Source: Escherichia phage JK1. Taken from it: 64,000 nt of DNA. Within the stretch, counting starts at the first letter, position 1, and each line of letters starts with the position of its first letter. The notes beneath the pieces are model-generated. The model worked only from the letters and a program-made list of their open reading frames with translations, was not told where the DNA came from and searched no databases. Positions 8,867 through 41,658 of the stretch are shown here, in pieces. The stretch lies in sequence record MZ436830.1, one strand, 5' to 3'. The translations under genes and the position numbers were made by a program.

Positions 8867-10680
8867 TGGTGTTTAACCCTATGCATGATTTCTTTATTTT
8901 TACCGAGATTAAATCCGCGTTCGTTTGGATTTCCCAAATAACCACATGTTCTTCTTATGGTGTTCATCTTTTTAGGATCAGTTTCTCCACAAATAGAACA
9001 AACAAATCCGTTTTCAGTAGGAGTCATTTCATGGGTACTTCCACATGTAAAACATTTATCTACTGGCATATTAACACCAAAATAATCTAAATGTTGTGCA
9101 GCATAATCCCATACGGCCTCAAGACCTTTCAAGTTATTTTTCATATCAGGAAGTTCAACATAAGAAATGTGACCACCTGTCGCAATGAAATGATATGGCG
9201 CTTCACGAGAAATCTTTTCAAACGGAGTAATATTTTCTTCTACTGAAACGTGGAAACTGTTAGTGTACCAGCCTTTATCGGTAACATCTTTTACACTTCC
9301 ATATTTTTCTGTATCAAGTTTACAGAAGCGATAACAAAGGTTTTCAGCAGGAGTCGAATATAAACTAAAAGCAAATCCAGTTCTTTCAGTCCACTGTTTA
9401 AGATGAGCATTCATTTTAGTTAAAATTTCTTGTCCAATATCACGACCGACAAGAATATTCAATTCGTGAATACCAATGTATCCTAGGGACACTGAACTTC
9501 TACCGTTTTTAAATAACTCAATTATGTCGTCATCAGGTTTAAGACGAACCCCGAATGCACCTTCTTGGTAAAGAATAGGAGCAACAGTAGCTTTAACTCC
9601 TTTTAAGGAACTAATTCTACACATCAATGCTTCAAAACACAGATCCATTCGTTCATTGAACAATTCAACAAATTTCTGTTCATTGAATTGTGTTCCAATA
9701 TAAGAATCTAACGCGATGCGAGGAAGATTCAATGTTACAACACCAAGATTATTACGTCCATCAAGAATTTCATTACCGGTCGAATCTTTCCATACGCTCA
9801 AGAAACTACGGCATCCCATCGGAGAAACAGGAACAGATGAACCAGTGATAGCTTTATTGTTCTTAGCCGAAATGATGTCAGGATACATTCTTTTGCTTGC
9901 GCACTCTAAAGCAAGCTGCTTAATATCATAGTTCGGGTCGTCTTTATAAAGATTAACACCTTCTTCAACGAACATAACAAGCTTAGGGAAAATAGGAGTT
10001 ATCCCATCACGACCAAGACCTTTAATACGATTTTTCAGAATTGCTTTCTGAATCATTCGTTCAGTCCAGTCAGTTCCCGTACCAAATGTAATTGTTACAA
10101 AAGGCGTTTGTCCGTTTGAACTAAAGAGAGTATTTACTTCATATTCATAAGCTTGGAATGCATCGTATACGTCTTTTTCTGTTTTAGATTGAGCATAATT
10201 CAATGCATCAGCGATTTGCCATTTTTCTGCATCCTCAATATGTTTTGCATAGGTGCGTTTAACATAAGGAGAAAGTACTTTATCTACATTAGCAAAAGTC
10301 GTTCCGCCGTATTGGTGAGAAGCAACCTGTGCAGTAATTTGTGCCATAATTGCAGTAGCAACACCGATTGATTTAGGAGTTTCAATCTGTGCATTACCAA
10401 GCTTAAATCCGTTCTCAAGCATTCCTTTTAAATCTACTAAACAGCAATTAGTAAATGGAAGAGCAGGGGAATAATCAATATCATGGAAATGGATAATTCC
10501 GCTTTCATGAGCTTTCATAATAAAAGACGGGACCATATTTTTGGCAATGTGTTTAGACACAATACCAGCCATAAGGTCCCGTTGAGTTGGAAAAACACGA
10601 GAATCTTTATTAGCATTCTCGTTTAAAAGGTCTTTATTAGTTTTATGAATCAATCCTTCAATTTCTTTTTCAATTGTCAT
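8863..10680 (-). CDS. nrdD: Anaerobic ribonucleoside-triphosphate reductase, uninterrupted
   Basis: 605 aa continuous ORF; C-terminal glycyl-radical motif RRTCGYLG and Zn-ribbon CFTCGS..CSICGE. Confidence 0.9.
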   Translation of the reverse strand: MTIEKEIEGLIHKTNKDLLNENANKDSRVFPTQRDLMAGIVSKHIAKNMVPSFIMKAHESGIIHFHDIDYSPALPFTNCCLVDLKGMLENGFKLGNAQIETPKSIGVATAIMAQITAQVASHQYGGTTFANVDKVLSPYVKRTYAKHIEDAEKWQIADALNYAQSKTEKDVYDAFQAYEYEVNTLFSSNGQTPFVTITFGTGTDWTERMIQKAILKNRIKGLGRDGITPIFPKLVMFVEEGVNLYKDDPNYDIKQLALECASKRMYPDIISAKNNKAITGSSVPVSPMGCRSFLSVWKDSTGNEILDGRNNLGVVTLNLPRIALDSYIGTQFNEQKFVELFNERMDLCFEALMCRISSLKGVKATVAPILYQEGAFGVRLKPDDDIIELFKNGRSSVSLGYIGIHELNILVGRDIGQEILTKMNAHLKQWTERTGFAFSLYSTPAENLCYRFCKLDTEKYGSVKDVTDKGWYTNSFHVSVEENITPFEKISREAPYHFIATGGHISYVELPDMKNNLKGLEAVWDYAAQHLDYFGVNMPVDKCFTCGSTHEMTPTENGFVCSICGETDPKKMNTIRRTCGYLGNPNERGFNLGKNKEIMHRVKHQ

Positions 10681-11801: not shown

Positions 11802-12122
11802 TTATAGCGTAATCCATTCTCGTACTGTCTGAGTTACTACACGTTCATGGGGCTCGACTAGTTCAACAGTCGGAACTGCATAATACCAGTCAGAATGATA
11901 AGAACCTGACCGAGATTCATTTACAGCCACATGTACATTATGTTTTGGACTAAAGTAAACACACTGACGATATTGACATTTACCATCTTGCACCCAGTCT
12001 TCTATTTCGACAGGTTTAAGATAATCGGAAAAATCGAAATCATAGTTTTCCGAAAATGCATCATGGTCTTCAATGATTTCGCTCAGAACTGCATCAACAT
12101 CTAATTTATTTTCAATAGTCAT
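11802..12122 (-). CDS. Hypothetical protein (49.1-like position)
   Basis: 106 aa ORF. Confidence 0.45.
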   Translation of the reverse strand: MTIENKLDVDAVLSEIIEDHDAFSENYDFDFSDYLKPVEIEDWVQDGKCQYRQCVYFSPKHNVHVAVNESRSGSYHSDWYYAVPTVELVEPHERVVTQTVREWITL

Positions 12123-12305
12123 TTTTCACCAATTAATTTCGCAATTTATTAAGTTCTTCATCATCAATCCAGGATTCTAGTCCTGATGGCAGGTCACATT
12201 CAATTTCCCAAAGAAGTTCTTCAATTTTCTGAAGACGATCTAGTTCTTCAGCTGGAATAGTAACCATTGACGGAGCTCGTGATACATTAATATCGTAAAT
12301 CATAT

Positions 12306-12521
12306 TTACCCCAATTTAACCATACAATCGCCGTATTTCCACTTAGAAATAGACTTTTCACCGTTAGAATAATAAACTTCGAGTTTAGCACGATTATTTT
12401 TAATTTGAATAACCTTGGCTGTCATCAAAGTTCCATACCCATAGTAAACTGCAACTTCATCACCTACATATACCGCGCTTCCGCGGTAATCATGGATATA
12501 ATCAGTTCCTTCGAGAATCAT
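12306..12521 (-). CDS. Hypothetical small protein
   Basis: 71 aa ORF; 4-nt overlap with nrdC. Confidence 0.45.
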   Translation of the reverse strand: MILEGTDYIHDYRGSAVYVGDEVAVYYGYGTLMTAKVIQIKNNRAKLEVYYSNGEKSISKWKYGDCMVKLG

Positions 12522-12782: not shown

Positions 12783-13025
12783 TTATTCCTTAATTCCTAG
12801 TACTTGTTTAAAAGTCTCGTCGTAATCAAGACTTTGGCCCGTTTGTTCTTTATGTTTGTATATAATATCACTTACTTCTGATAGCATATTTTTATATGAA
12901 CGAGTTAAAGCAGATTTAAGCACGCTGTATCTATCAGGAAATTTACCATGTTCATTATAATACGCTATTGCTAATTCACGGACTGCCTTTTCAGCAGTCT
13001 CCATATATTCTTTACGCTTTGTCAT
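12783..13025 (-). CDS. Hypothetical protein; start set at internal Met MTKRKEY
   Basis: ORF track 12783..13166 overlaps the upstream ORF by 155 nt, so the internal start is preferred. Confidence 0.4.
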
Positions 13026-13326
13026 TTTCTTCTCGGTCAAATCGGTGTTTACAATGGCGGCATTTATAACGAAGATTACTAGTCTGCCAATGAACCAATT
13101 GCACCTGTTCAGTTCCGCATTCAGGGCAATTAGGAACGTTTTTAGAAGCACGTTCGCGGCGTTCAACCATGACCATTACAGAATCCCAATTAATAGGGCT
13201 GCTATAATCATCACAACCATGAATCTTTCCACGCATTTCCAAATCGTCTTCTTCACCAGCCATAATAATTTTAATTAGACTGGAATTACTAGAAGCTGCA
13301 ATATCTTCTAATAGACGCTTTTTCAT
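13012..13326 (-). CDS. Zinc-ribbon protein
   Basis: 104 aa; CPECG..CRHCKH four-Cys pattern. Confidence 0.5.
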
Positions 13327-14249
13327 TTCAATACCTCAATAGCATTACGTAAACCATTTGCTTTTGCATTAAGAGCTTTTAACAATTTGGTGTGTTCTGC
13401 AATTTGGGCTTCAACTTCAATCAAACGAGTATTGAGATATTCGCGTTCTTCTTTCATAGTATCATTCCCATGATTGGGTTTTGACGTAGGTTTAAATTCA
13501 CTAGGGTCCTTTAACTTAATAACAACTTTAGTTTCAAACAACGAAAGACCATAATTTGTATTATCATCAAAGGATTCAACTACATCCATTTTAGATAATA
13601 ACATACGCAAATTATAAGTCAAAGAACGAATTGTTTCATTGTGTTTATTAGCTTCACGCGGTTTCATATACGGAAGATTTTTATATATCTCGTGCGGAGC
13701 ACAGATAATAACTGATAATTCAGATGATTTATTCTGGGATGATGGAATGAATTTAGCCGTAACCCAGTCTTTTACATTCACATTAATAGTACGATCATCG
13801 CCATGACAAAACAGTCTACGAGAATGCTTAAAAAGCATATTCACGTTATTATTGAATTCGTGTGAAAACTCACTAGTAAATTTTTCTTTACTATTTTTAG
13901 AAAACCATTCTTCTAAATAAGTTCTTTTCACGTCGTTAATAATATTAAATGTAACAACACTAGCATTTGATACATTAGTCTCAATGTAGCTTGGATACAT
14001 AAATTTTTTAATGTTCTCACGAGCTACAGTAGAAGATAACACACGAGAACGCTTGAACCACTCAAGTAAAGAACCAAGAGATTGTGAATACGCATTCTGA
14101 GTATCCTTACAGATATGATTTTCCTGTCCAGTATAATCTAAAAAATCACGAAGAATATTATTGATTACTGCTCTGTGTCCGATTTGATAATTACGGTGTT
14201 TAGTAATAAGACTGTCAAAATAATCAATATAATGTTTACGAGTTTTCAT
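13323..14249 (-). CDS. Hypothetical protein with C-terminal coiled-coil
   Basis: 308 aa; first of four consecutive 300-350 aa ORFs that each end in a heptad-like helical tail. Confidence 0.6.
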   Translation of the reverse strand: MKTRKHYIDYFDSLITKHRNYQIGHRAVINNILRDFLDYTGQENHICKDTQNAYSQSLGSLLEWFKRSRVLSSTVARENIKKFMYPSYIETNVSNASVVTFNIINDVKRTYLEEWFSKNSKEKFTSEFSHEFNNNVNMLFKHSRRLFCHGDDRTINVNVKDWVTAKFIPSSQNKSSELSVIICAPHEIYKNLPYMKPREANKHNETIRSLTYNLRMLLSKMDVVESFDDNTNYGLSLFETKVVIKLKDPSEFKPTSKPNHGNDTMKEEREYLNTRLIEVEAQIAEHTKLLKALNAKANGLRNAIEVLK

Positions 14250-14301
14250 GTTCTTCTCACTTGGTTAATGATTTATACTCCGAGCCATCCTTGGCTTTAA
14301 A

Positions 14302-15354
14302 TTACTTAATTAACTGTAAAGCTTGTTCCAGACGATCAAGACGATTAACGGATTCTTCCCAAATCTTTTTAGCCTGCTCATATTCTTTGTGCGCTTTATT
14401 AGAAATTTCTAGAACTTCTTTATAAGCTTTTTCTAGTGCAATAACTTCTGGACGAATTTCTATCGGTTCAGGTGAATCGTCAAGACATTCCATTAGTTCC
14501 TCAAGGGTAGTTTCTTCTTTAGGAGTATTCACAATTTCATCACATTTTTGTTGGTAAATTTCTTTATCAGTCGGTGAGTACGCACACTTTACTTCACGAA
14601 GACTAATTACAATTTTATATCCTTCCCATCCGCATATATTCTTAAAAGGATATGTATGAATACTTTTTACAGTTTCCATACAGCCCAAAGCCATCTCTAA
14701 TTGATGAGTTATAGTGCTAGCAATTGAGAAAAATTTATTAATGTTCTTTTGATTAGCTGCTGGTGTAAAAAATCCATAATTCACAAAAATAGCTACTTTA
14801 TTTTTATCAAGCTCATATTCTTTTACGATAATCATATCAGAAGCCAAAGGATGAATTTGACGATAATCGCCATAACATAATTTAGAAGCTGATTTTAGAA
14901 TTTGTCCTTTGAAAAGTCTGAAATTACTAATCCAACGACGAGTAAAAATATTCTCAGGGTCTTCTTTGATATTAAGATGATAAGAATTAACATCACCGAA
15001 CCAATTATATCCTACTACATCTTTAGTTCGTTTAATTTCTTTCCCAAAATTACCAAGAATATCCCTATTAACCAAATATGAAAGAAGACGAGACCCTTTA
15101 AAGGTTTTCTTAATGGCATCTTTATCTGTACGACTAGAAATTTCACGAACTTCATGAATAAATTTGCCGGAAGAAACAATACTTGCATCAGTATTATTGA
15201 GCCATTGATTGATAATAGAAAGAACACTATTTTGGCCAAACAGCGGTATAACTTTATCATCAATAACGCTATTGAATGATTTGATATATTCGTTACGAGT
15301 CATAATAATCTCCTCAGTAGAAAGTAAGAACATTATACCACATCCTTGTGGCAA
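14302..15354 (-). CDS. Hypothetical protein with C-terminal coiled-coil
   Basis: 350 aa (start may be internal MTRNEYIK). Confidence 0.6.
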   Translation of the reverse strand: MPQGCGIMFLLSTEEIIMTRNEYIKSFNSVIDDKVIPLFGQNSVLSIINQWLNNTDASIVSSGKFIHEVREISSRTDKDAIKKTFKGSRLLSYLVNRDILGNFGKEIKRTKDVVGYNWFGDVNSYHLNIKEDPENIFTRRWISNFRLFKGQILKSASKLCYGDYRQIHPLASDMIIVKEYELDKNKVAIFVNYGFFTPAANQKNINKFFSIASTITHQLEMALGCMETVKSIHTYPFKNICGWEGYKIVISLREVKCAYSPTDKEIYQQKCDEIVNTPKEETTLEELMECLDDSPEPIEIRPEVIALEKAYKEVLEISNKAHKEYEQAKKIWEESVNRLDRLEQALQLIK

Positions 15355-15360
15355 AGTAAA

Positions 15361-16383
15361 CTAGTTCAGTGCATTTAGTGCATTGTTCAGTTTAGAACGT
15401 TGCTTCGTGAGATTTTTGACTTTTTCTTGAGCTTTTTCTAGCATCTTTTCAGCTTCTAACACTTCATTAGTTGCTTTAACGAGTTCATCATCTACTGCCT
15501 TGATAGACTTCTCAATCGCATGTGCATGCCATTTTTCAACAGGTTTAAGACTCGGATTTTCAATAGGAAGAAAATTCACTTTATTGAATTTCCATGCATC
15601 CTTATTACCTGAACTATACATCCAAAATTTAGGATCGTTTGATAAGTAATTAGATAAATTTAAGTTATCTTGCACTTCTTGCTTTTTCTCTTGCGTAACT
15701 TCGTCCTTTCTCAAAAAATCGTATTTAAATGAAACGATCATATCAAGTTCATATGTTGTTGTGTCTAATTTAAATCGTTCGAAATGCTGTGAAATCTTAG
15801 ACTGAACTGCAGCAACAACATCCATATACTTAAATGCTTCTGTCAACTGCGATTTAAGGCATTCGCAAATTGAAAGAGAATTTTTTGTATTAGGTTTAAA
15901 GCTAATTCGTGCAGTTCTATTATTTTCTTTTAATGGTCTTACTTCCATCTGAAGAGTATAACCATCAAATTTCAGGTTCTTTAAGTTAATGTCAGAACCT
16001 TTTAATCGACTAGCCGTCGACAAAATTTGCTTTAATTGTTTACGGAATAGAGCAATAAATCTCCATTCAATACGATAATGATTTGGATTGAAAAATCCAG
16101 ATGATAAATCAACCTTACTCTGACCAACACCTTGAACAAATAGAGGATTTTTATAATCAATAGTTTTACAGAAATCGGTGAGCTGCTCACGAGCAGTCAT
16201 TTGTGTAATATACCCCGCTTTACTAAAATGACGTAACCATTCACTGCTATTCAGATGTTTAAAGGCGTGAATGGAACAATTAACTTTACCAAGGTCTAAA
16301 TTATTTTCGCACAAAAATGTCATAGCATCACGAGTATAGCTGGCATTACGAACCATATCTTCAATTTGAGAACGAGTTTTCAT
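15361..16383 (-). CDS. Hypothetical protein with C-terminal coiled-coil
   Basis: 340 aa; begins MKTR like the 308-aa ORF. Confidence 0.6.
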   Translation of the reverse strand: MKTRSQIEDMVRNASYTRDAMTFLCENNLDLGKVNCSIHAFKHLNSSEWLRHFSKAGYITQMTAREQLTDFCKTIDYKNPLFVQGVGQSKVDLSSGFFNPNHYRIEWRFIALFRKQLKQILSTASRLKGSDINLKNLKFDGYTLQMEVRPLKENNRTARISFKPNTKNSLSICECLKSQLTEAFKYMDVVAAVQSKISQHFERFKLDTTTYELDMIVSFKYDFLRKDEVTQEKKQEVQDNLNLSNYLSNDPKFWMYSSGNKDAWKFNKVNFLPIENPSLKPVEKWHAHAIEKSIKAVDDELVKATNEVLEAEKMLEKAQEKVKNLTKQRSKLNNALNALN

Positions 16384-16391
16384 GGTGTTCC

Positions 16392-17294
16392 TTAAGATTT
16401 AAGTAAATCAACAATTTTAATTAATTTTTCACGCTCAGATTTAGCTTTACTACTCAATCCAGATAGTCTGAAAATTTCATCGTCATATTGTTGAATAGAA
16501 ATATTCAGCTCTTCAATCTGTTTATTAAAATAATCAATTTGTTCAGAATGTTTTTCGTTACTACGAACTGGTACAGGTTTTGTAGGCAATTTAGTTAAAC
16601 TGGATTCATCCGGGCGATAAATTAAAATACAATTTGAACCAATCGGGCATTTAGCACCAGACACATATTCTAATGTTCCAGCTTCTTTTAAAACTTCAAA
16701 AGCTAAACAGAGATGATGCCCCATATTGACATAATCTGTAGAGTGAGCTCTGACGTAATAATCATCTCCACGAGTGCTAAATTTAAAGCATTTAAGGTCT
16801 TCTGTATTATTAGTTTTAAAAATCATTTGTTTATCTAGACCTTTAGCCAATCGAGCACCTAATGCTAATAATCGTCGTTGATTTTCCCACAAATCCTCAA
16901 TCATTTGATCAAATGATAATTTCGGCATTAGTCGACCATAAAGGTCATATCCTTTATTATAATTACGAAGGATTTCACTCGCATTAATACGAGACAACGC
17001 TCCAATTTTATTAAGGGCTTTCATGATGCGATTAGATAAACTCATTCCAGACCCGTTTGTTCGCTGTAAATGTTTTTCTAATCCAAATCCAATATCAACT
17101 TTAAACTTATCTAAAATTTCTGCATGAACATCTCTGTCAATAACATTCAAATCCAAAGTTGGGTTAAATCTATGAAAAAATTTATCTGGCTCTCCACGAC
17201 GAAGTACAGTCCATTCATTCAATTTTTTATTAACTAAAGATTTAATTACTGCATTGACATTATTAATTACTACTGACATATTTTTCTCACTCAA
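16392..17294 (-). CDS. Hypothetical protein with C-terminal coiled-coil
   Basis: 300 aa. Confidence 0.6.
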   Translation of the reverse strand: MSEKNMSVVINNVNAVIKSLVNKKLNEWTVLRRGEPDKFFHRFNPTLDLNVIDRDVHAEILDKFKVDIGFGLEKHLQRTNGSGMSLSNRIMKALNKIGALSRINASEILRNYNKGYDLYGRLMPKLSFDQMIEDLWENQRRLLALGARLAKGLDKQMIFKTNNTEDLKCFKFSTRGDDYYVRAHSTDYVNMGHHLCLAFEVLKEAGTLEYVSGAKCPIGSNCILIYRPDESSLTKLPTKPVPVRSNEKHSEQIDYFNKQIEELNISIQQYDDEIFRLSGLSSKAKSEREKLIKIVDLLKS

Positions 17295-17750: not shown

Positions 17751-18278
17751 TTATGCGAGTACCGTCTTTAACCGTTCTTCAAACTTCCGAAGAGTATTTT
17801 GGCGTTCAGCTCTTTGCTTTTTGTAAGTTTCAATACGCTCTGAAATGAGAGTGTATCGTTCATTTACTGATTCTTTCATAAAATCAGGAATTTCACGAGA
17901 AGCTTTAATCTCGTCAAATTTATCAATAACAGCTTGCTCTTCAGCAATTAAGTTATCATACATCAAAATATCTTTCTTGATGAACTCAATATCTTCTTGA
18001 GTTACGCGAGATAATTTAGATGCTTTATCCTTTTTGTACTGTTCGTTAGTATCACGAGACCAGTGTAATGTACGATTTTTATTCGTATTCTTATAAATTT
18101 CTACAATACCAATCTCATCAATAATAACGATCCAATTCCAACGGGATTTGTAAATTTGTCCTCCATCAACTGTGATTTCACCTCCGATTGAGATGTCATT
18201 AAAGAACTTGCTTTGTGCTTCAGATTTAAATTTACCATCGTTGTAATTTACCAAGTTGAAAATATCTTTAGCGTTCAT
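17751..18278 (-). CDS. Hypothetical protein
   Basis: 175 aa; early promoter motif directly upstream. Confidence 0.55.
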   Translation of the reverse strand: MNAKDIFNLVNYNDGKFKSEAQSKFFNDISIGGEITVDGGQIYKSRWNWIVIIDEIGIVEIYKNTNKNRTLHWSRDTNEQYKKDKASKLSRVTQEDIEFIKKDILMYDNLIAEEQAVIDKFDEIKASREIPDFMKESVNERYTLISERIETYKKQRAERQNTLRKFEERLKTVLA

Positions 18279-18742: not shown

Positions 18743-19723
18743 TTATTTCAGAAGAGTAACCTCAGCGATTTCTTCCCAACCGTTTTTGTCGGTCATAATA
18801 AAGTCAGCAAGATAAAGAGCAGTACGCAGTGAAACATTACGTAAACGATTAACATTGACTTTCATCCATGATAATGCTTTATAAGTTTCTTCATCAGAAA
18901 GACCGCGCTTTTGCATCATGTCAGTTGAAAGAATAACATCTTCAACCCTGACCATAATTTCTTCATTAGTGTGAACACCCAAATCCAAATAAACTGAGCG
19001 GGACACTAATGCTTGTAAATGTGGAGCAAGTTTAGTACCACGGTCTAATTCGCGGTCAATGTCAACGTTTGTGATAAAAACAATCGTTCCTTTAAATTCA
19101 AACTCACGCTCAATGCCTTTTTCTTCTAAGTAAGAAGATGCAGTGCTCCAGCAGACTTTACGGGTCTCTCCAGTGTCCAGAGCAGCTTTTAGAAGATTAA
19201 GAATGTCCATATCAGAGAAAACATCCACATCATCAATCAAAAGGACAGAATTCTCTTCACGATTATTCCAAAGCTGTTCATAAAGACCGATACCGGAGAT
19301 TTTACCGTTAATGCTTTTATATTCAATGTATCCAATATCATTTGCTTTATTTAAAGCTTTATCTAAAGAATACGTTTTACCAATACCTGCCGCACCAGAG
19401 ATAATTAATGAACGAATGTTTCCGTTAATAATACCATTCGTCATCATTCCCATAACATTAAATCTTTTATTAATGCGGGTTTTCATATCTTCATACGATT
19501 CTTTAACTTCTTCAACTTTTACACCATCATATGAAATGTCTGATTTGTAAACCCAAACACCGCGACGTTTACCGTCAATTTCAACAAAAACTTTACCATC
19601 TCCTTGTGCATCTACCGGAGCATTATCTGGGAACCATTCGCCTAAGAGCTCAAAAGTTCCAGAGATTTCTTTACCGAAGTAGATACCCTTATTGATAGTT
19701 ACAGTTTTCATTTTATTCTCCAA
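18743..19723 (-). CDS. P-loop ATPase (AAA-like; T4 nrdC.10-like position)
   Basis: 326 aa; Walker A GAAGIGKT, Walker B VLLIDDVD. Confidence 0.65.
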   Translation of the reverse strand: MENKMKTVTINKGIYFGKEISGTFELLGEWFPDNAPVDAQGDGKVFVEIDGKRRGVWVYKSDISYDGVKVEEVKESYEDMKTRINKRFNVMGMMTNGIINGNIRSLIISGAAGIGKTYSLDKALNKANDIGYIEYKSINGKISGIGLYEQLWNNREENSVLLIDDVDVFSDMDILNLLKAALDTGETRKVCWSTASSYLEEKGIEREFEFKGTIVFITNVDIDRELDRGTKLAPHLQALVSRSVYLDLGVHTNEEIMVRVEDVILSTDMMQKRGLSDEETYKALSWMKVNVNRLRNVSLRTALYLADFIMTDKNGWEEIAEVTLLK

Positions 19724-19825: not shown

Positions 19826-20839
19826 TCATTTATAATAACTTTGGTGGTTTTCAAGATAGACCTTCTCAAGGAAGTCATCCCAGAAACTCATGTCTACTGT
19901 TTTAGGCATACCATTCTTAGAAGCTTCAGTAGATGCTGCTTCTACTTGATCGACCACATCTTCCAAAAACTCTTGAACTGTTTTAAATGGATGTTTACCC
20001 AACTTCACGTCGAGAATAAATGGAGCATCTTGGAGTGGATAAATCAAGTCGCCAGTTTTGTAAATTTCCAATAGTTGAAGTCCACCACGACAAGCATGAC
20101 TTAGTGCTTTCCAATCAATACCTTCATTAGCTTCGGCTTTACGAGCACGTTCACCATATTCAGCATCTAATTTGTTCAGTGACTGCTTAAGCTCAATAAG
20201 AGAAAGCGTTGTCTGATATTTACGACCCAGCACTGTATAGAACGTTTGTGGACCTGTTTTCTCATGATTATGGAACACCCATTCACAGAATTCGTTTTCT
20301 GGAAGACGATGCTTAATATCTTCAACTTTAGTACGACGCTGCTTAATGGAACCGTCTTCTTGGTAATCAACCCATTGCTCAGGGATTTGATTAACTACTT
20401 TCAATACATCGCGTAATGCAGCCAAACGAGAACCCTTGACACCGTATTTAGAAGCTTGCTTGCGGACATATCCTAAATAGGATTTCATGTTAGTCGTATA
20501 AAAACGAGAACGGTTGTCTTGAATAAACTTCCACACATCAGGCAAATCAGATTTAACCACTAGTTTAGGTGGAGTATGAAGCATATCCAATGCTACAGTT
20601 TCACCATCTGCTGCTAATTTAAAGAAATATTTAAGACTGTATAGTTCATGGTCAATATCATCTTTAGTGTTTTTAGATGATGTATTGTTAGTATTTTTAC
20701 TCATATGCTCTTTAACATTTCCGACAAGAATATCGCGAGCAGGAGGAACAAAGATTTCTTTAAAATCTACATCAGATTCTGGGGTAGAAGTTCCATAAAG
20801 ATGACTACCAAAATAGCTTTTCATTACTGTTTTCATCAT
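19826..20839 (-). CDS. Hypothetical protein (T4 nrdC.11-like position)
   Basis: 337 aa ORF. Confidence 0.6.
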   Translation of the reverse strand: MMKTVMKSYFGSHLYGTSTPESDVDFKEIFVPPARDILVGNVKEHMSKNTNNTSSKNTKDDIDHELYSLKYFFKLAADGETVALDMLHTPPKLVVKSDLPDVWKFIQDNRSRFYTTNMKSYLGYVRKQASKYGVKGSRLAALRDVLKVVNQIPEQWVDYQEDGSIKQRRTKVEDIKHRLPENEFCEWVFHNHEKTGPQTFYTVLGRKYQTTLSLIELKQSLNKLDAEYGERARKAEANEGIDWKALSHACRGGLQLLEIYKTGDLIYPLQDAPFILDVKLGKHPFKTVQEFLEDVVDQVEAASTEASKNGMPKTVDMSFWDDFLEKVYLENHQSYYK

Positions 20840-38724: not shown

Positions 38725-39421
<697 letters not shown>

Positions 39422-39422
<1 letters not shown>

Positions 39423-40147
39423 TATAGTACCTTTAGTGTATTTTTAATTTTAGAAAAAAGTTCTTCAAGAGAACCATCGTTTGTAATTACTAAATCGCCA
39501 TCACGAATTGGCAATCCAGCTTCTGTAATATGTGTATCATTGGATTTTTGACCAGGACGAACTACATGAATTACTGTAGCACCCATCGCCCTAGCCGCAT
39601 CCATTTCATGATCTTGACGAGTATCAGGAACGATATAATAATCATAACCTGAGTTAAATTTATCAAGATAATCTAAAGCAAATAATTTTACCCAATACAT
39701 GCGGTCGAAGTTATTAACAATCAAATCCGTACCTAGGGCTTGCATCAGACGACGGACTGACCATTGATCTTCAATATTATTTATAACGTCAATAATCTTG
39801 TTAAATGCTACGGAATTAACTGATTCTTGTCCTTCGTCATCAAAAACAAACACACCCTTAATTGGGCTTTTACCATTAAGATAGCAAAATGCTTGTTCCA
39901 TAATCGTGATTACTTCTGATTTAGTCAGATTTAAATTAGTCTCACGATCATAGTCAATTCCTTCAAACTCTTTACGAGTTAAGCAAGGATAGTCAGTGTT
40001 TGCTGCAAATACTCCCCATGCATAAGCCAATGCATCCTTAATAGGACCAGCAAGTTGGTATTTAACTGCAGAATAATTGCTCATGATAAAATCAGCAGTA
40101 GTATCTTTTCCACTACGCTTTACACCGCTTAAAAAGATTAGTTTCAT
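39422..40147 (-). CDS. 1: Deoxynucleoside monophosphate kinase (gene 1)
   Basis: 241 aa from MKLIFLSGVKRSGKDT (P-loop); GAGGAG ribosome-binding site; ORF track extends 13 codons upstream. Confidence 0.85.
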
Positions 40148-40196
40148 GTGTTTCTCCTCAAATTTAATTAAGATTATAACACACAAAACTGAAGCA

Positions 40197-40727
40197 TTAA
40201 ACTTCTGCTATAATTTTTCCATCTTTTTCTACTTGAAAATATGTGTAAGGAATCGTTGCAGTACATACTAAAGCCGGGTCTGAATCTTCTGTGTAGCTAA
40301 ATTCTACTTCAGATAGGTCAGAAACCCAAGGCTTATAAAAATTTATTGACATCACGATTTCAGTTTTGCTATTATCTAAGATGTAAAGCGTAATGTACTC
40401 AGGACCTGTTTTTTGAGCAGTATTTTCACCTGTAAGATAGTTGCTAGTTCCTAGCATCCATTCATACATTCCTATCCATGATTTAAGTTCTTCATCAACT
40501 ATAAATCTCACAATGAGTGGATCATACTCGAATGTAACACCTGGACGTTGTGCTCGGCCCAGTCCAAACGGCCCAGTCACGGTATCAGTAACAGGTATTC
40601 TAATTCCTGGAATAGGAACTGACTGAGCATTTAAAGTAAAAGCAGATGTAGTATTACTATGTGGTATTGATAATACAAAGTTAGTTGTATTTGCTTGGTT
40701 AAAAATTTGTTGCAGAGCTTGCGACAT
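40197..40727 (-). CDS. 3: Tail completion / sheath stabiliser gp3
   Basis: 176 aa from internal Met MSQALQQ with GAGGAA ribosome-binding site; position between genes 1 and 2. Confidence 0.7.
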   Translation of the reverse strand: MSQALQQIFNQANTTNFVLSIPHSNTTSAFTLNAQSVPIPGIRIPVTDTVTGPFGLGRAQRPGVTFEYDPLIVRFIVDEELKSWIGMYEWMLGTSNYLTGENTAQKTGPEYITLYILDNSKTEIVMSINFYKPWVSDLSEVEFSYTEDSDPALVCTATIPYTYFQVEKDGKIIAEV

Positions 40728-40833
40728 ATATTCCTCATAATGCTTTATAACTGTTGGTGGTATAATGGGTCTAAGTCCCTTCCATTCAATTCCATTTAGA
40801 ACAAACAACAGAAAAGAATGGAAGATAATAGAA

Positions 40834-41658
40834 TTAGATATTTGACCAGACTTTGTTTGCAGAGAAACGTTTTCCTTTTGAAACGAACTGCTGAAGTGGC
40901 ATCAACACAACGTTCGCCCAGTCTTTCGGGGCGATTTCAACAAGGCTACCCATAATATTACCAGGTATATATGCCTTAATCATTTGGTCTGCACCCCTAA
41001 ATCCTTTCACTTGACTCCAATCAATTTTTAATTTCGTTTTATTAGTAATAGTAGGTGTATTTGCATATTGCTTTAAAAGCTCTTCTAGGAATTGCTGACG
41101 AGCTTTAGGTGGAATATAGTGCAAGTTTAATCCGTACATTAAATTATGCTTACCTAAACCAAGGTAAATTATCAAAGGAAATTTATCCCAGTAAGGAAGA
41201 GTTTCCTTGTGTTTAGCATCATAAGCAAAAGCATATATTCGTCCCGGCTGCGGGCGAACAACTTTATGTCCTTTTACTTGCTTAATAGTTTCAGCAAACC
41301 ACTTTCTGGTTTTATTATTAATTGCTGCACCTTCATTACGAATTTTATCGCGCAATGTTTGTCTGAATGAATTTATCATAAGCAGTTGTCTTTCTTGCTT
41401 ATTGAGCTTATTCATTGGTTTTGATTCAAGCTTTTGAATCTTTTCAGCTGTTTTAATTCCTGAAGCATATTTTGACATTGCCGAAGTAAACGTAGAGTAT
41501 TTGATTCCTCTTTCTTCAGCAAATTGCTTTCCTGTCATTCCTTTTGCTTTGGCCTTTTTATATTCAAGACCTATTTGAATCCATTTCTTTTCGTTTAATG
41601 ATTGCTTAACCTTTGGAACTTGGGGAGTGCTTTCATTAATTATTTGAAAAATAGCCAT
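40834..41658 (-). CDS. 2: DNA end-protector protein gp2
   Basis: 274 aa, basic; size and position as T4 gp2. Confidence 0.75.

Follow-up and report, generated by a model that had tools for sequence, protein, structure and literature searches.

Four probable paralogs, nrdC.3 to nrdC.6, form a tandem array in the T4-like Escherichia phage JK1 and may contribute to counter-defense

About half of the genes of the reference phage T4 are without a known function. The analysis presented here concerns the counterparts of T4 genes nrdC.3, nrdC.4, nrdC.5, and nrdC.6 in Escherichia phage JK1 (MZ436830.1), within a stretch of 64,000 nucleotides (nt) that is referred to as the window and that supplies all of the coordinates given below. 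The window belongs to a Tequatrovirus. A total of 506 phage records, almost all from Tequatrovirus, match its DNA with 90–97% identity, and the identity to T4 is approximately 93%. Four consecutive genes, all on the minus strand, fill the interval 13323–17279. They are nrdC.3 (13323–14249, 308 amino acids (aa)), nrdC.4 (14302–15303, 333 aa), nrdC.5 (15361–16383, 340 aa), and nrdC.6 (16392–17279, 295 aa). The spacers between them, in that order, are 52, 57, and 8 nt, and the stop codon of nrdC.3 directly adjoins the start of the next downstream gene. When compared to relatives, all four genes have a ratio of nonsynonymous to synonymous substitution rates (dN/dS) of 0.06–0.41, which shows them to be constrained coding genes.

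Raw calling of open reading frames (ORFs) produced lengths of 308, 350, 340, and 300 aa, and a first-pass annotation made from the DNA had described four contiguous ORFs of these sizes at 13323–17294. The consecutive, co-directional arrangement and the sizes of 308 and 340 aa stand; the other two sizes were inflated by upstream TTG codons. The start of the 333-aa gene is the ATG at 15303, which is preceded by GAGGAG, and that of the 295-aa gene is the ATG at 17279, from which the amino terminus agrees with all homologs (MSQAIN or MSVVIN). As a result, the array ends at 17279 and not at 17294. The 308-aa and 340-aa proteins both begin with MKTR, as had been observed at first pass, and the 333-aa protein begins with MTRNEY.

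From the T4 annotations (U76612, NC_000866), the four genes are almost certainly the orthologs of nrdC.3–nrdC.6, which agrees with the earlier placement of the array in the block downstream of T4 nrdC. The gene order from 49.2 through nrdC and nrdC.1 to nrdC.11 is also that of NC_000866, except at the slot of gene 49.3; beyond nrdC.6 come nrdC.7, which encodes a 134-aa membrane protein, and then nrdC.8, nrdC.9, nrdC.10, and nrdC.11. NrdC.3 is 89% identical to its T4 counterpart and matches phrog_1435 over its full length with an expectation value (E) of 6.7e-101. The same family is matched full-length by NrdC.4 (E 5.7e-167), which is 93% identical to T4 NrdC.4. NrdC.5 is 93% identical to T4 NrdC.5 over 340 of 340 aa with 25 substitutions, most of which fall in residues 1–60 and 301–340. 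It matches phrog_2351 and all 307 profile positions of Pfam DUF7235 (PF23882; E 2.1e-122, 408.8 bits against a cut-off of 30), a model that none of the other three proteins matched. NrdC.6 matches phrog_2257 full-length (E 1.8e-152), and two motifs, NKGYDLYGR and NQRRLLALGARLA, are invariant among 24 aligned NrdC.6 homologs, the JK1 protein included. Homologs of NrdC.4, NrdC.5, and NrdC.6 carry the precomputed Pfam labels PF26897, PF23882, and PF26899, respectively.

In a tblastn comparison with T4, NrdC.6 was 97% identical; however, the match was divided over two frames at approximately residue 258. The nrdC.6 gene of the T4 reference (NC_000866, locus L019, 5508–6394) is frameshifted at this point relative to the window and most relatives, with residues 259–295 in another frame, so the annotated 275-aa T4 NrdC.6 is without the end of its carboxy terminal helix. 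Either laboratory T4 truly carries this lesion or the sequencing was in error. A separate matter of annotation is that many phage records in GenBank label the homologs of nrdC.3–nrdC.6 as "thioredoxin" or "Thioredoxin, phage-associated". A thioredoxin or glutaredoxin identity was rejected: no such Pfam family was matched by any of the four proteins up to an E of 1, and the predicted folds (a helical domain, an α/β sandwich, and a long helix) differ from the β-α-β-α-β-β-α arrangement of thioredoxins. The label seems to derive from the nrdC.x naming of these genes.

Sequence comparisons within the quartet indicate that nrdC.3, nrdC.4, and nrdC.5 are very probably of common ancestry. The relationship of nrdC.3 and nrdC.4 is detected by blastp (23.5% identity over 268 aa, E 9e-8) and by hhalign (98.4%, E 6e-15, residues 3–248). 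A direct hhalign comparison of nrdC.4 and nrdC.5 gave 72% (E 3.4e-5) over 241 collinear columns. The two families are bridged by P0234, a 315-aa protein (phrog_26858) found in Marfa-group Klebsiella phages, which scored 95.5% against the nrdC.4 family and 91.4% against the nrdC.5 family. When the P0234 family was merged into either side, the nrdC.4 and nrdC.5 comparison rose to 94.8–96.5% (E 5e-8 to 1e-9, 246–276 columns), and the alignment spanned residues 27–340 against 36–333. An even higher value of 99.5% for nrdC.3 and nrdC.4 against nrdC.5, obtained from an iterated family search, was discarded as an artefact since P0226, a chimeric protein fusing nrdC.5 to nrdC.3, had drawn the families together; the comparison was redone without it.

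AlphaFold2 models cover NrdC.4 and NrdC.6. Structure prediction of the amino terminal domains had been suggested at first pass as a check, and the two models present the same order of elements: approximately six amino terminal helices, a short β-meander, a long helix, a one-turn helix, a β-hairpin, a helix, a second β-hairpin, a disordered linker, and one or two terminal helices. In the NrdC.4 model (predicted local distance difference test (pLDDT) = 81.9), a helical domain (residues 3–84) is followed by three strands, a helix (116–140), two strands, a helix (185–208), two strands, a disordered segment (pLDDT < 50 within 261–284), and a final helix (285–332). The NrdC.6 model (pLDDT = 77.1) ends in two helices at residues 245–271 and 277–294. 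The predicted architecture is thus an amino terminal helical domain, a two-layer α/β sandwich, a flexible disordered linker, and a carboxy terminal heptad helix of 40–50 residues. Sequence searches of the PDB found no solved structure for any of the four proteins. Matches to Gemini_AL1_M, DUF3905, Cas6b_C, XerC/D, caspase-3, and antibody light chains in the Pfam, NCBIfam, PADLOC, and PDB searches were sub-threshold noise.

From the models, nrdC.6 probably belongs with the other three genes. A Foldseek search with the NrdC.4 model retrieved C4MZI0, a protein of the NrdC.6 family, with an E of 3.7e-5 and a probability of 1.00, and seven of the ten significant BFVD matches of the NrdC.6 model were also matched by the NrdC.4 model with E ≤ 2.5e-4. 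It might be argued instead that only nrdC.3, nrdC.4, and nrdC.5 are true paralogs and that nrdC.6 is unrelated, having gained its carboxy terminal amphipathic helix independently and standing beside the others by chance. Consistent with this, nrdC.6 has no significant profile match to the other families (hhalign 0.1–8.5%), its conserved motifs NKGYDLYGR, NQRRLLALGARLA, and PVPVRSNEKH are missing from the other three proteins, and the β-meander that follows the helical domain is hardly formed in its model. The Foldseek TM-scores are also below 0.5 (0.38–0.49), and long helices can inflate such matches. However, the order of secondary structures agrees with NrdC.4 from the amino to the carboxy terminus, and the best of the weak hhalign alignments are collinear with the structural correspondence (NrdC.4 62–150 with NrdC.6 83–152, and NrdC.3 211–308 with NrdC.6 187–294), jointly covering residues 83–294 of NrdC.6. 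In addition, nrdC.6 keeps its place inside the array in every enterobacterial T4-like locus examined (L002–L014). An unrelated nrdC.6 is therefore considered unlikely.

When the family hidden Markov models (HMMs) were run against the ORFs of the window, the best non-self match of each was another member of the quartet, and no further paralog was found elsewhere in the window. The first-pass annotation had proposed that the four proteins are diverged paralogs, which is upheld by the profile comparisons for nrdC.3, nrdC.4, and nrdC.5 and by predicted structure for nrdC.6. It had also proposed variable amino terminal domains on a common oligomerization module. That is the wrong description because the similarity runs through the whole protein, both in the alignments and in the shared element order of the NrdC.4 and NrdC.6 models. 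We conclude that the four genes probably encode one fold that diverged as a whole and not exchanged heads on a common tail.

The carboxy terminal helix was assessed by scoring how often the a and d positions of the best heptad register are filled by L, I, V, M, or A in the last 42–49 residues, in comparison to 2000 shuffles of the same residues. The occupancies were 0.79–0.83 for NrdC.3, 0.71–0.75 for NrdC.4, 0.92–0.93 for NrdC.5, and 0.71–0.75 for NrdC.6, and for each of the four proteins, no more than 35 of the 2000 shuffles reached the observed value. Among the 70 ORFs of the window with at least 100 aa, the quartet holds ranks 1–4. The segment of NrdC.5 ranks first (15364–15510, last 49 aa), with 13 of 14 positions filled at 0.93 and no shuffle equaling it; that of NrdC.3 ranks second (13326–13451, last 42 aa), with 14 shuffles equaling its occupancy of 0.83. 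The 48-residue helix of NrdC.4 (residues 285–332, 14308–14451) has a 3.5-residue hydrophobic moment that was equaled by 0–2 shuffles, and for the two helices of NrdC.6 (residues 245–271 and 277–294, 16398–16547), 3–8 shuffles reached the observed occupancy. Thus, the earlier observation that each protein ends in a heptad-like helix of 40–50 residues holds. The apolar heptad periodicity extends over at least four heptads, as in coiled-coil proteins, and both AlphaFold2 models place helices there. The helix is the best-conserved part of the architecture: in every family, orthologs agree more closely in the carboxy terminal segment than in the remainder of the protein (0.87 vs. 0.72, 0.75 vs. 0.54 for NrdC.4, 0.52 vs. 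0.42, and 0.73 vs. 0.59), and within NrdC.6, the pattern DDEIFRL...KAKxER...LLK is almost invariant in 24 homologs. As monomers, the AlphaFold2 models present a single free helix in NrdC.4 and a helix-break-helix in NrdC.6. The helix may oligomerize the proteins. A carboxy terminal helix was also observed in nrdC.8 (17751–18278, minus strand, 175 aa), two genes upstream of the array, which ends in the charged amphipathic sequence YKKQRAERQNTLRKFEERLKTVLA. It resembles the KAKAERQK...LLK end of NrdC.6 homologs; NrdC.8 belongs to a separate family (phrog_2274), and the resemblance is a likeness only.

The family is confined to T4-like phages, where it is found downstream of nrdC in one, two, three, or four copies. 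When 1.84 billion representatives were searched exhaustively by HMMER with a combined nrdC.3 and nrdC.4 profile, 10 matches were returned, all relatives of the T4-like phage kind. The BFVD matches with E ≤ 1e-3 were all uncharacterized proteins of T4-like phages that infect Escherichia, Yersinia, Enterobacter, Pectobacterium, Klebsiella, Erwinia, Serratia, and Acinetobacter. At the syntenic site, Tequatrovirus loci have four copies, more distant enterobacterial T4-like phages (L006–L014) have three with nrdC.3 missing, and Klebsiella Marfa-like phages have one. In Acinetobacter phage Acj61 (Twarogvirinae), two adjacent genes downstream of nrdC encode proteins of 330 and 304 aa with heptad-helix ends, and they correspond to two of the Foldseek matches. 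Since direct hhalign comparison of their products, p120 and p121, with the four T4 families detected no sequence similarity, the link to Acj61 is drawn from Foldseek only. The early region of Acj61 has another tandem pair elsewhere, Acj61p076 and p077 (L020 15028–17322; record 39027–41321), which are two 372-aa genes annotated as duplicates (the record notes "putative copy of Acj61p076").

Several differences between relatives are signs of accessory-gene turnover. Two allele classes of nrdC.3 are found among close relatives (the window compared to L004 and to L005 at approximately 9056–9986), with 63–65% aa identity overall. Their first 60 residues are 93% identical and residues 120–240 only 42–51%, which suggests that the α/β domain of nrdC.3 has been replaced in a mosaic fashion. 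The P0226 protein, encoded by a 167-kilobase contig, is a natural in-frame fusion of the middle of NrdC.5 (MEVRPLKENN...AWKFNKVN) with the carboxy terminal 170 aa or so of an NrdC.3-type protein (MLFKHARKLF...), corresponding to a deletion that took away nrdC.4 entirely, together with the end of nrdC.5 and the beginning of nrdC.3. In the Tequatrovirus locus L005 (7971–9003), nrdC.4 is divided into ORFs of 193 and 158 aa by an apparent frameshift or as a pseudogene. The frameshifted nrdC.6 of T4 may be counted with these. Of the NrdC.6 homologs, that of Shigella phage Sf25 (P0066) is 378 aa long with an internal tandem duplication of approximately 83 residues (IRAHSTDY...QIEEL twice).

With respect to function, one member of the quartet is no longer without a role, and the first-pass statement that function is unknown is outdated to this extent. 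The nrdC.5 gene of T4 overcomes the defense protein Dsr1 since its expression restores the plating of a T4 deletion mutant on dsr1 cells (Srikant, Guegler and Laub, eLife 2022, PMC9391042). Because the T4 annotations place nrdC.5 at the 340-aa ORF, this ORF and not the 333-aa ORF is the published anti-Dsr1 gene, and we infer from the sequence that the allele of the window would share the activity. The TPR sensor of Dsr1 is reported to recognize the major capsid proteins of phages (2026 preprint, PMC12803255). In T4, the nrdC.1–6 block can be removed (PMC9825161). Genes of the same region act on other systems: Gp49.2 inhibits OLD (PMC13096335) and NrdC.1 inhibits Septu (bioRxiv 10.1101/2025.11.20.689424). 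Orthologs of both are present in the window, 49.2 at 11802–12122 and nrdC.1 at approximately 12783–13025. A promoter of the T4 early type was identified by consensus scan and from the sequence in the spacer between nrdC.5 and nrdC.4 (15332–15360, minus strand; TTTACT, 17 nt, TATAAT, with an upstream TG), and "early promoter 50.0" is annotated at the same position in U76612.

Taken as a whole, the reading that is favored, with some reservation, is that four paralogous accessory genes, early and not essential, stand in tandem and are engaged in counter-defense. The array would have expanded through duplications at one constant position downstream of nrdC. As paralogs of the anti-Dsr1 gene nrdC.5, the nrdC.3, nrdC.4, and nrdC.6 genes are plausible candidate anti-immunity genes, and their products would be counter-defense proteins with other specificities than NrdC.5. 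The chances that all four genes have such a role are judged to be about even. The proteins would be made early, before defense sensors meet late phage proteins, and might act as stoichiometric binders with the globular body contacting the target and the carboxy terminal helix serving either for homo-oligomerization as a coiled coil or as a conserved element for docking. Direct binding of this kind is put forward tentatively, by analogy, and is the more doubtful part of the proposal.

A number of points weigh against counter-defense as the common role. The experimental support is limited to nrdC.5 and is genetic in kind, being complementation; no binding, structure, or mechanism has been published for NrdC.5, and no later work on its anti-Dsr1 mechanism or on DUF7235 was found in the literature. 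The structural models are of NrdC.4 and NrdC.6. Matches in Pfam, NCBIfam, PADLOC, and the PDB give no functional clue, and no PADLOC family was matched by the four proteins or P0234 with E up to 1. The dN/dS values are well below 1, no 60-codon block has a dN/dS above 1 (Nei-Gojobori), and only ordinary purifying selection is seen, with no direct evidence of positive selection. In the NrdC.6 model, the carboxy terminus folds as a helical hairpin, which might be packed against itself. Finally, three of the four proteins are basic (NrdC.3, NrdC.5, and NrdC.6, with isoelectric points of 9.1–9.3 and net charges of +7 to +12; NrdC.4 is neutral), which also fits nucleic-acid binding. Since the proteins are neutral to basic, a DNA-mimic role of the Ocr type was dropped.

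The basic charge leads to a different proposal, in which the family serves an early role in host takeover or nucleic-acid binding, with DNA, RNA, or the nucleoid as possible targets, and the anti-Dsr1 effect of NrdC.5 is indirect. Complementation, as the only evidence for nrdC.5, is compatible with an indirect effect, and the ordinary purifying selection is in keeping with this proposal. The amino terminal helical region of NrdC.3 bears a very weak resemblance to the amino terminal domain of XerC/XerD (E 0.005–0.03, far below the cut-off). However, the block is dispensable in laboratory hosts, copy number and alleles differ between close relatives, inhibition of OLD and Septu has been demonstrated for flanking genes, and no recognized nucleic-acid-binding domain was found above threshold. 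On balance, a nucleic-acid or takeover role is improbable. A further possibility, that the α/β domain is a derived tail-terminator or tail-completion protein with a λ gpU-like fold and that the proteins are early decoys of virion proteins for immune sensors of phage structural proteins, is very improbable. The similarity to tail terminators is below the level of homology, and those proteins (λ gpU, SPP1 gp17-like, DUF3168) are late, structural, approximately 130–280 aa in length, form hexameric rings, and are without the amino terminal helical domain and the carboxy terminal heptad helix, in contrast to the early, non-essential genes of the array.

Among known systems, counter-defense finds its closest comparison in T4 NrdC.5 itself (NP_049703, DUF7235). 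The 340-aa gene of the window is its ortholog, with full-length similarity and the same flanking genes, and the other three would be paralogs of it that share the order of its domains and end in a heptad helix. However, these three are less than 25% identical to NrdC.5, so the same target cannot be assumed. For the mode of action, DSAD1 of phage SPβ serves as a working analogy: it neutralizes the SIR2-domain NADase DSR2 by filling the sensor region, in competition with the activating virion protein. The hosts and phage groups are different, the target is DSR2 and not Dsr1, and the proposed likeness is one of action, no relationship in sequence or fold having been found or tested. The 49.2 and nrdC.1 genes belong to the same early, dispensable block, which lies between gene 49 and mobD, and each overcomes one defense system; in contrast to the array, their products are 80–106 aa long, unrelated in sequence, without a coiled-coil tail, and outside the paralog family. 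In a more novel reading, the NrdC.3–6 fold might be an expandable "sensor-blocker" platform of T4-like phages in which each early, helix-oligomerized paralog sits in the sensor domain of a separate host immune protein (Dsr1 in the case of NrdC.5 and other sensors of the TPR, STAND, or SIR2 type in that of the others), perhaps by imitating a virion protein through a tail-terminator-like α/β domain. This idea is a long shot. If true, the array would be the phage equivalent of the multigene families used in immune evasion, with three orphan members hinting at pairs of defenses and triggers that have yet to be recognized.

The genes have been published, as have their dispensability and the phenotype of nrdC.5, so that the feature is largely known already and the overall gain is incremental. 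What is added is the proposed joining of three or four families of unknown function (PF26897, DUF7235/PF23882, and PF26899, with phrog_26858 in addition) into a single structural family whose architecture is defined, together with copy-number variation at a fixed locus. With a structural family at hand, a structure-function study of NrdC.5 and Dsr1 would become easier to design. If nrdC.3, nrdC.4, and nrdC.6 are indeed paralogs of the anti-Dsr1 gene, they present three concrete candidates for counter-defense. The widespread "thioredoxin" mis-annotation is also flagged.

Outside of the array, the region between 49.2 and nrdC contains ORFs of 56 and 71 aa (12133–12303 and 12306–12521, minus strand) that have no tblastn match in the region of T4 from gene 49 to nrdC.11. 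Since T4 has gene 49.3 (102 aa) at this location, the slot carries different cargo in JK1. Upstream of the array, nrdC.10 (18743–19723) has weak clamp-loader (AAA+-type) PHROG matches, to phrog_1250 and also to clamp-loader families, and nrdC.11 (19826–20839) encodes a nucleotidyltransferase (phrog_388). The nrdC.10 and nrdC.11 pair may be another accessory module.

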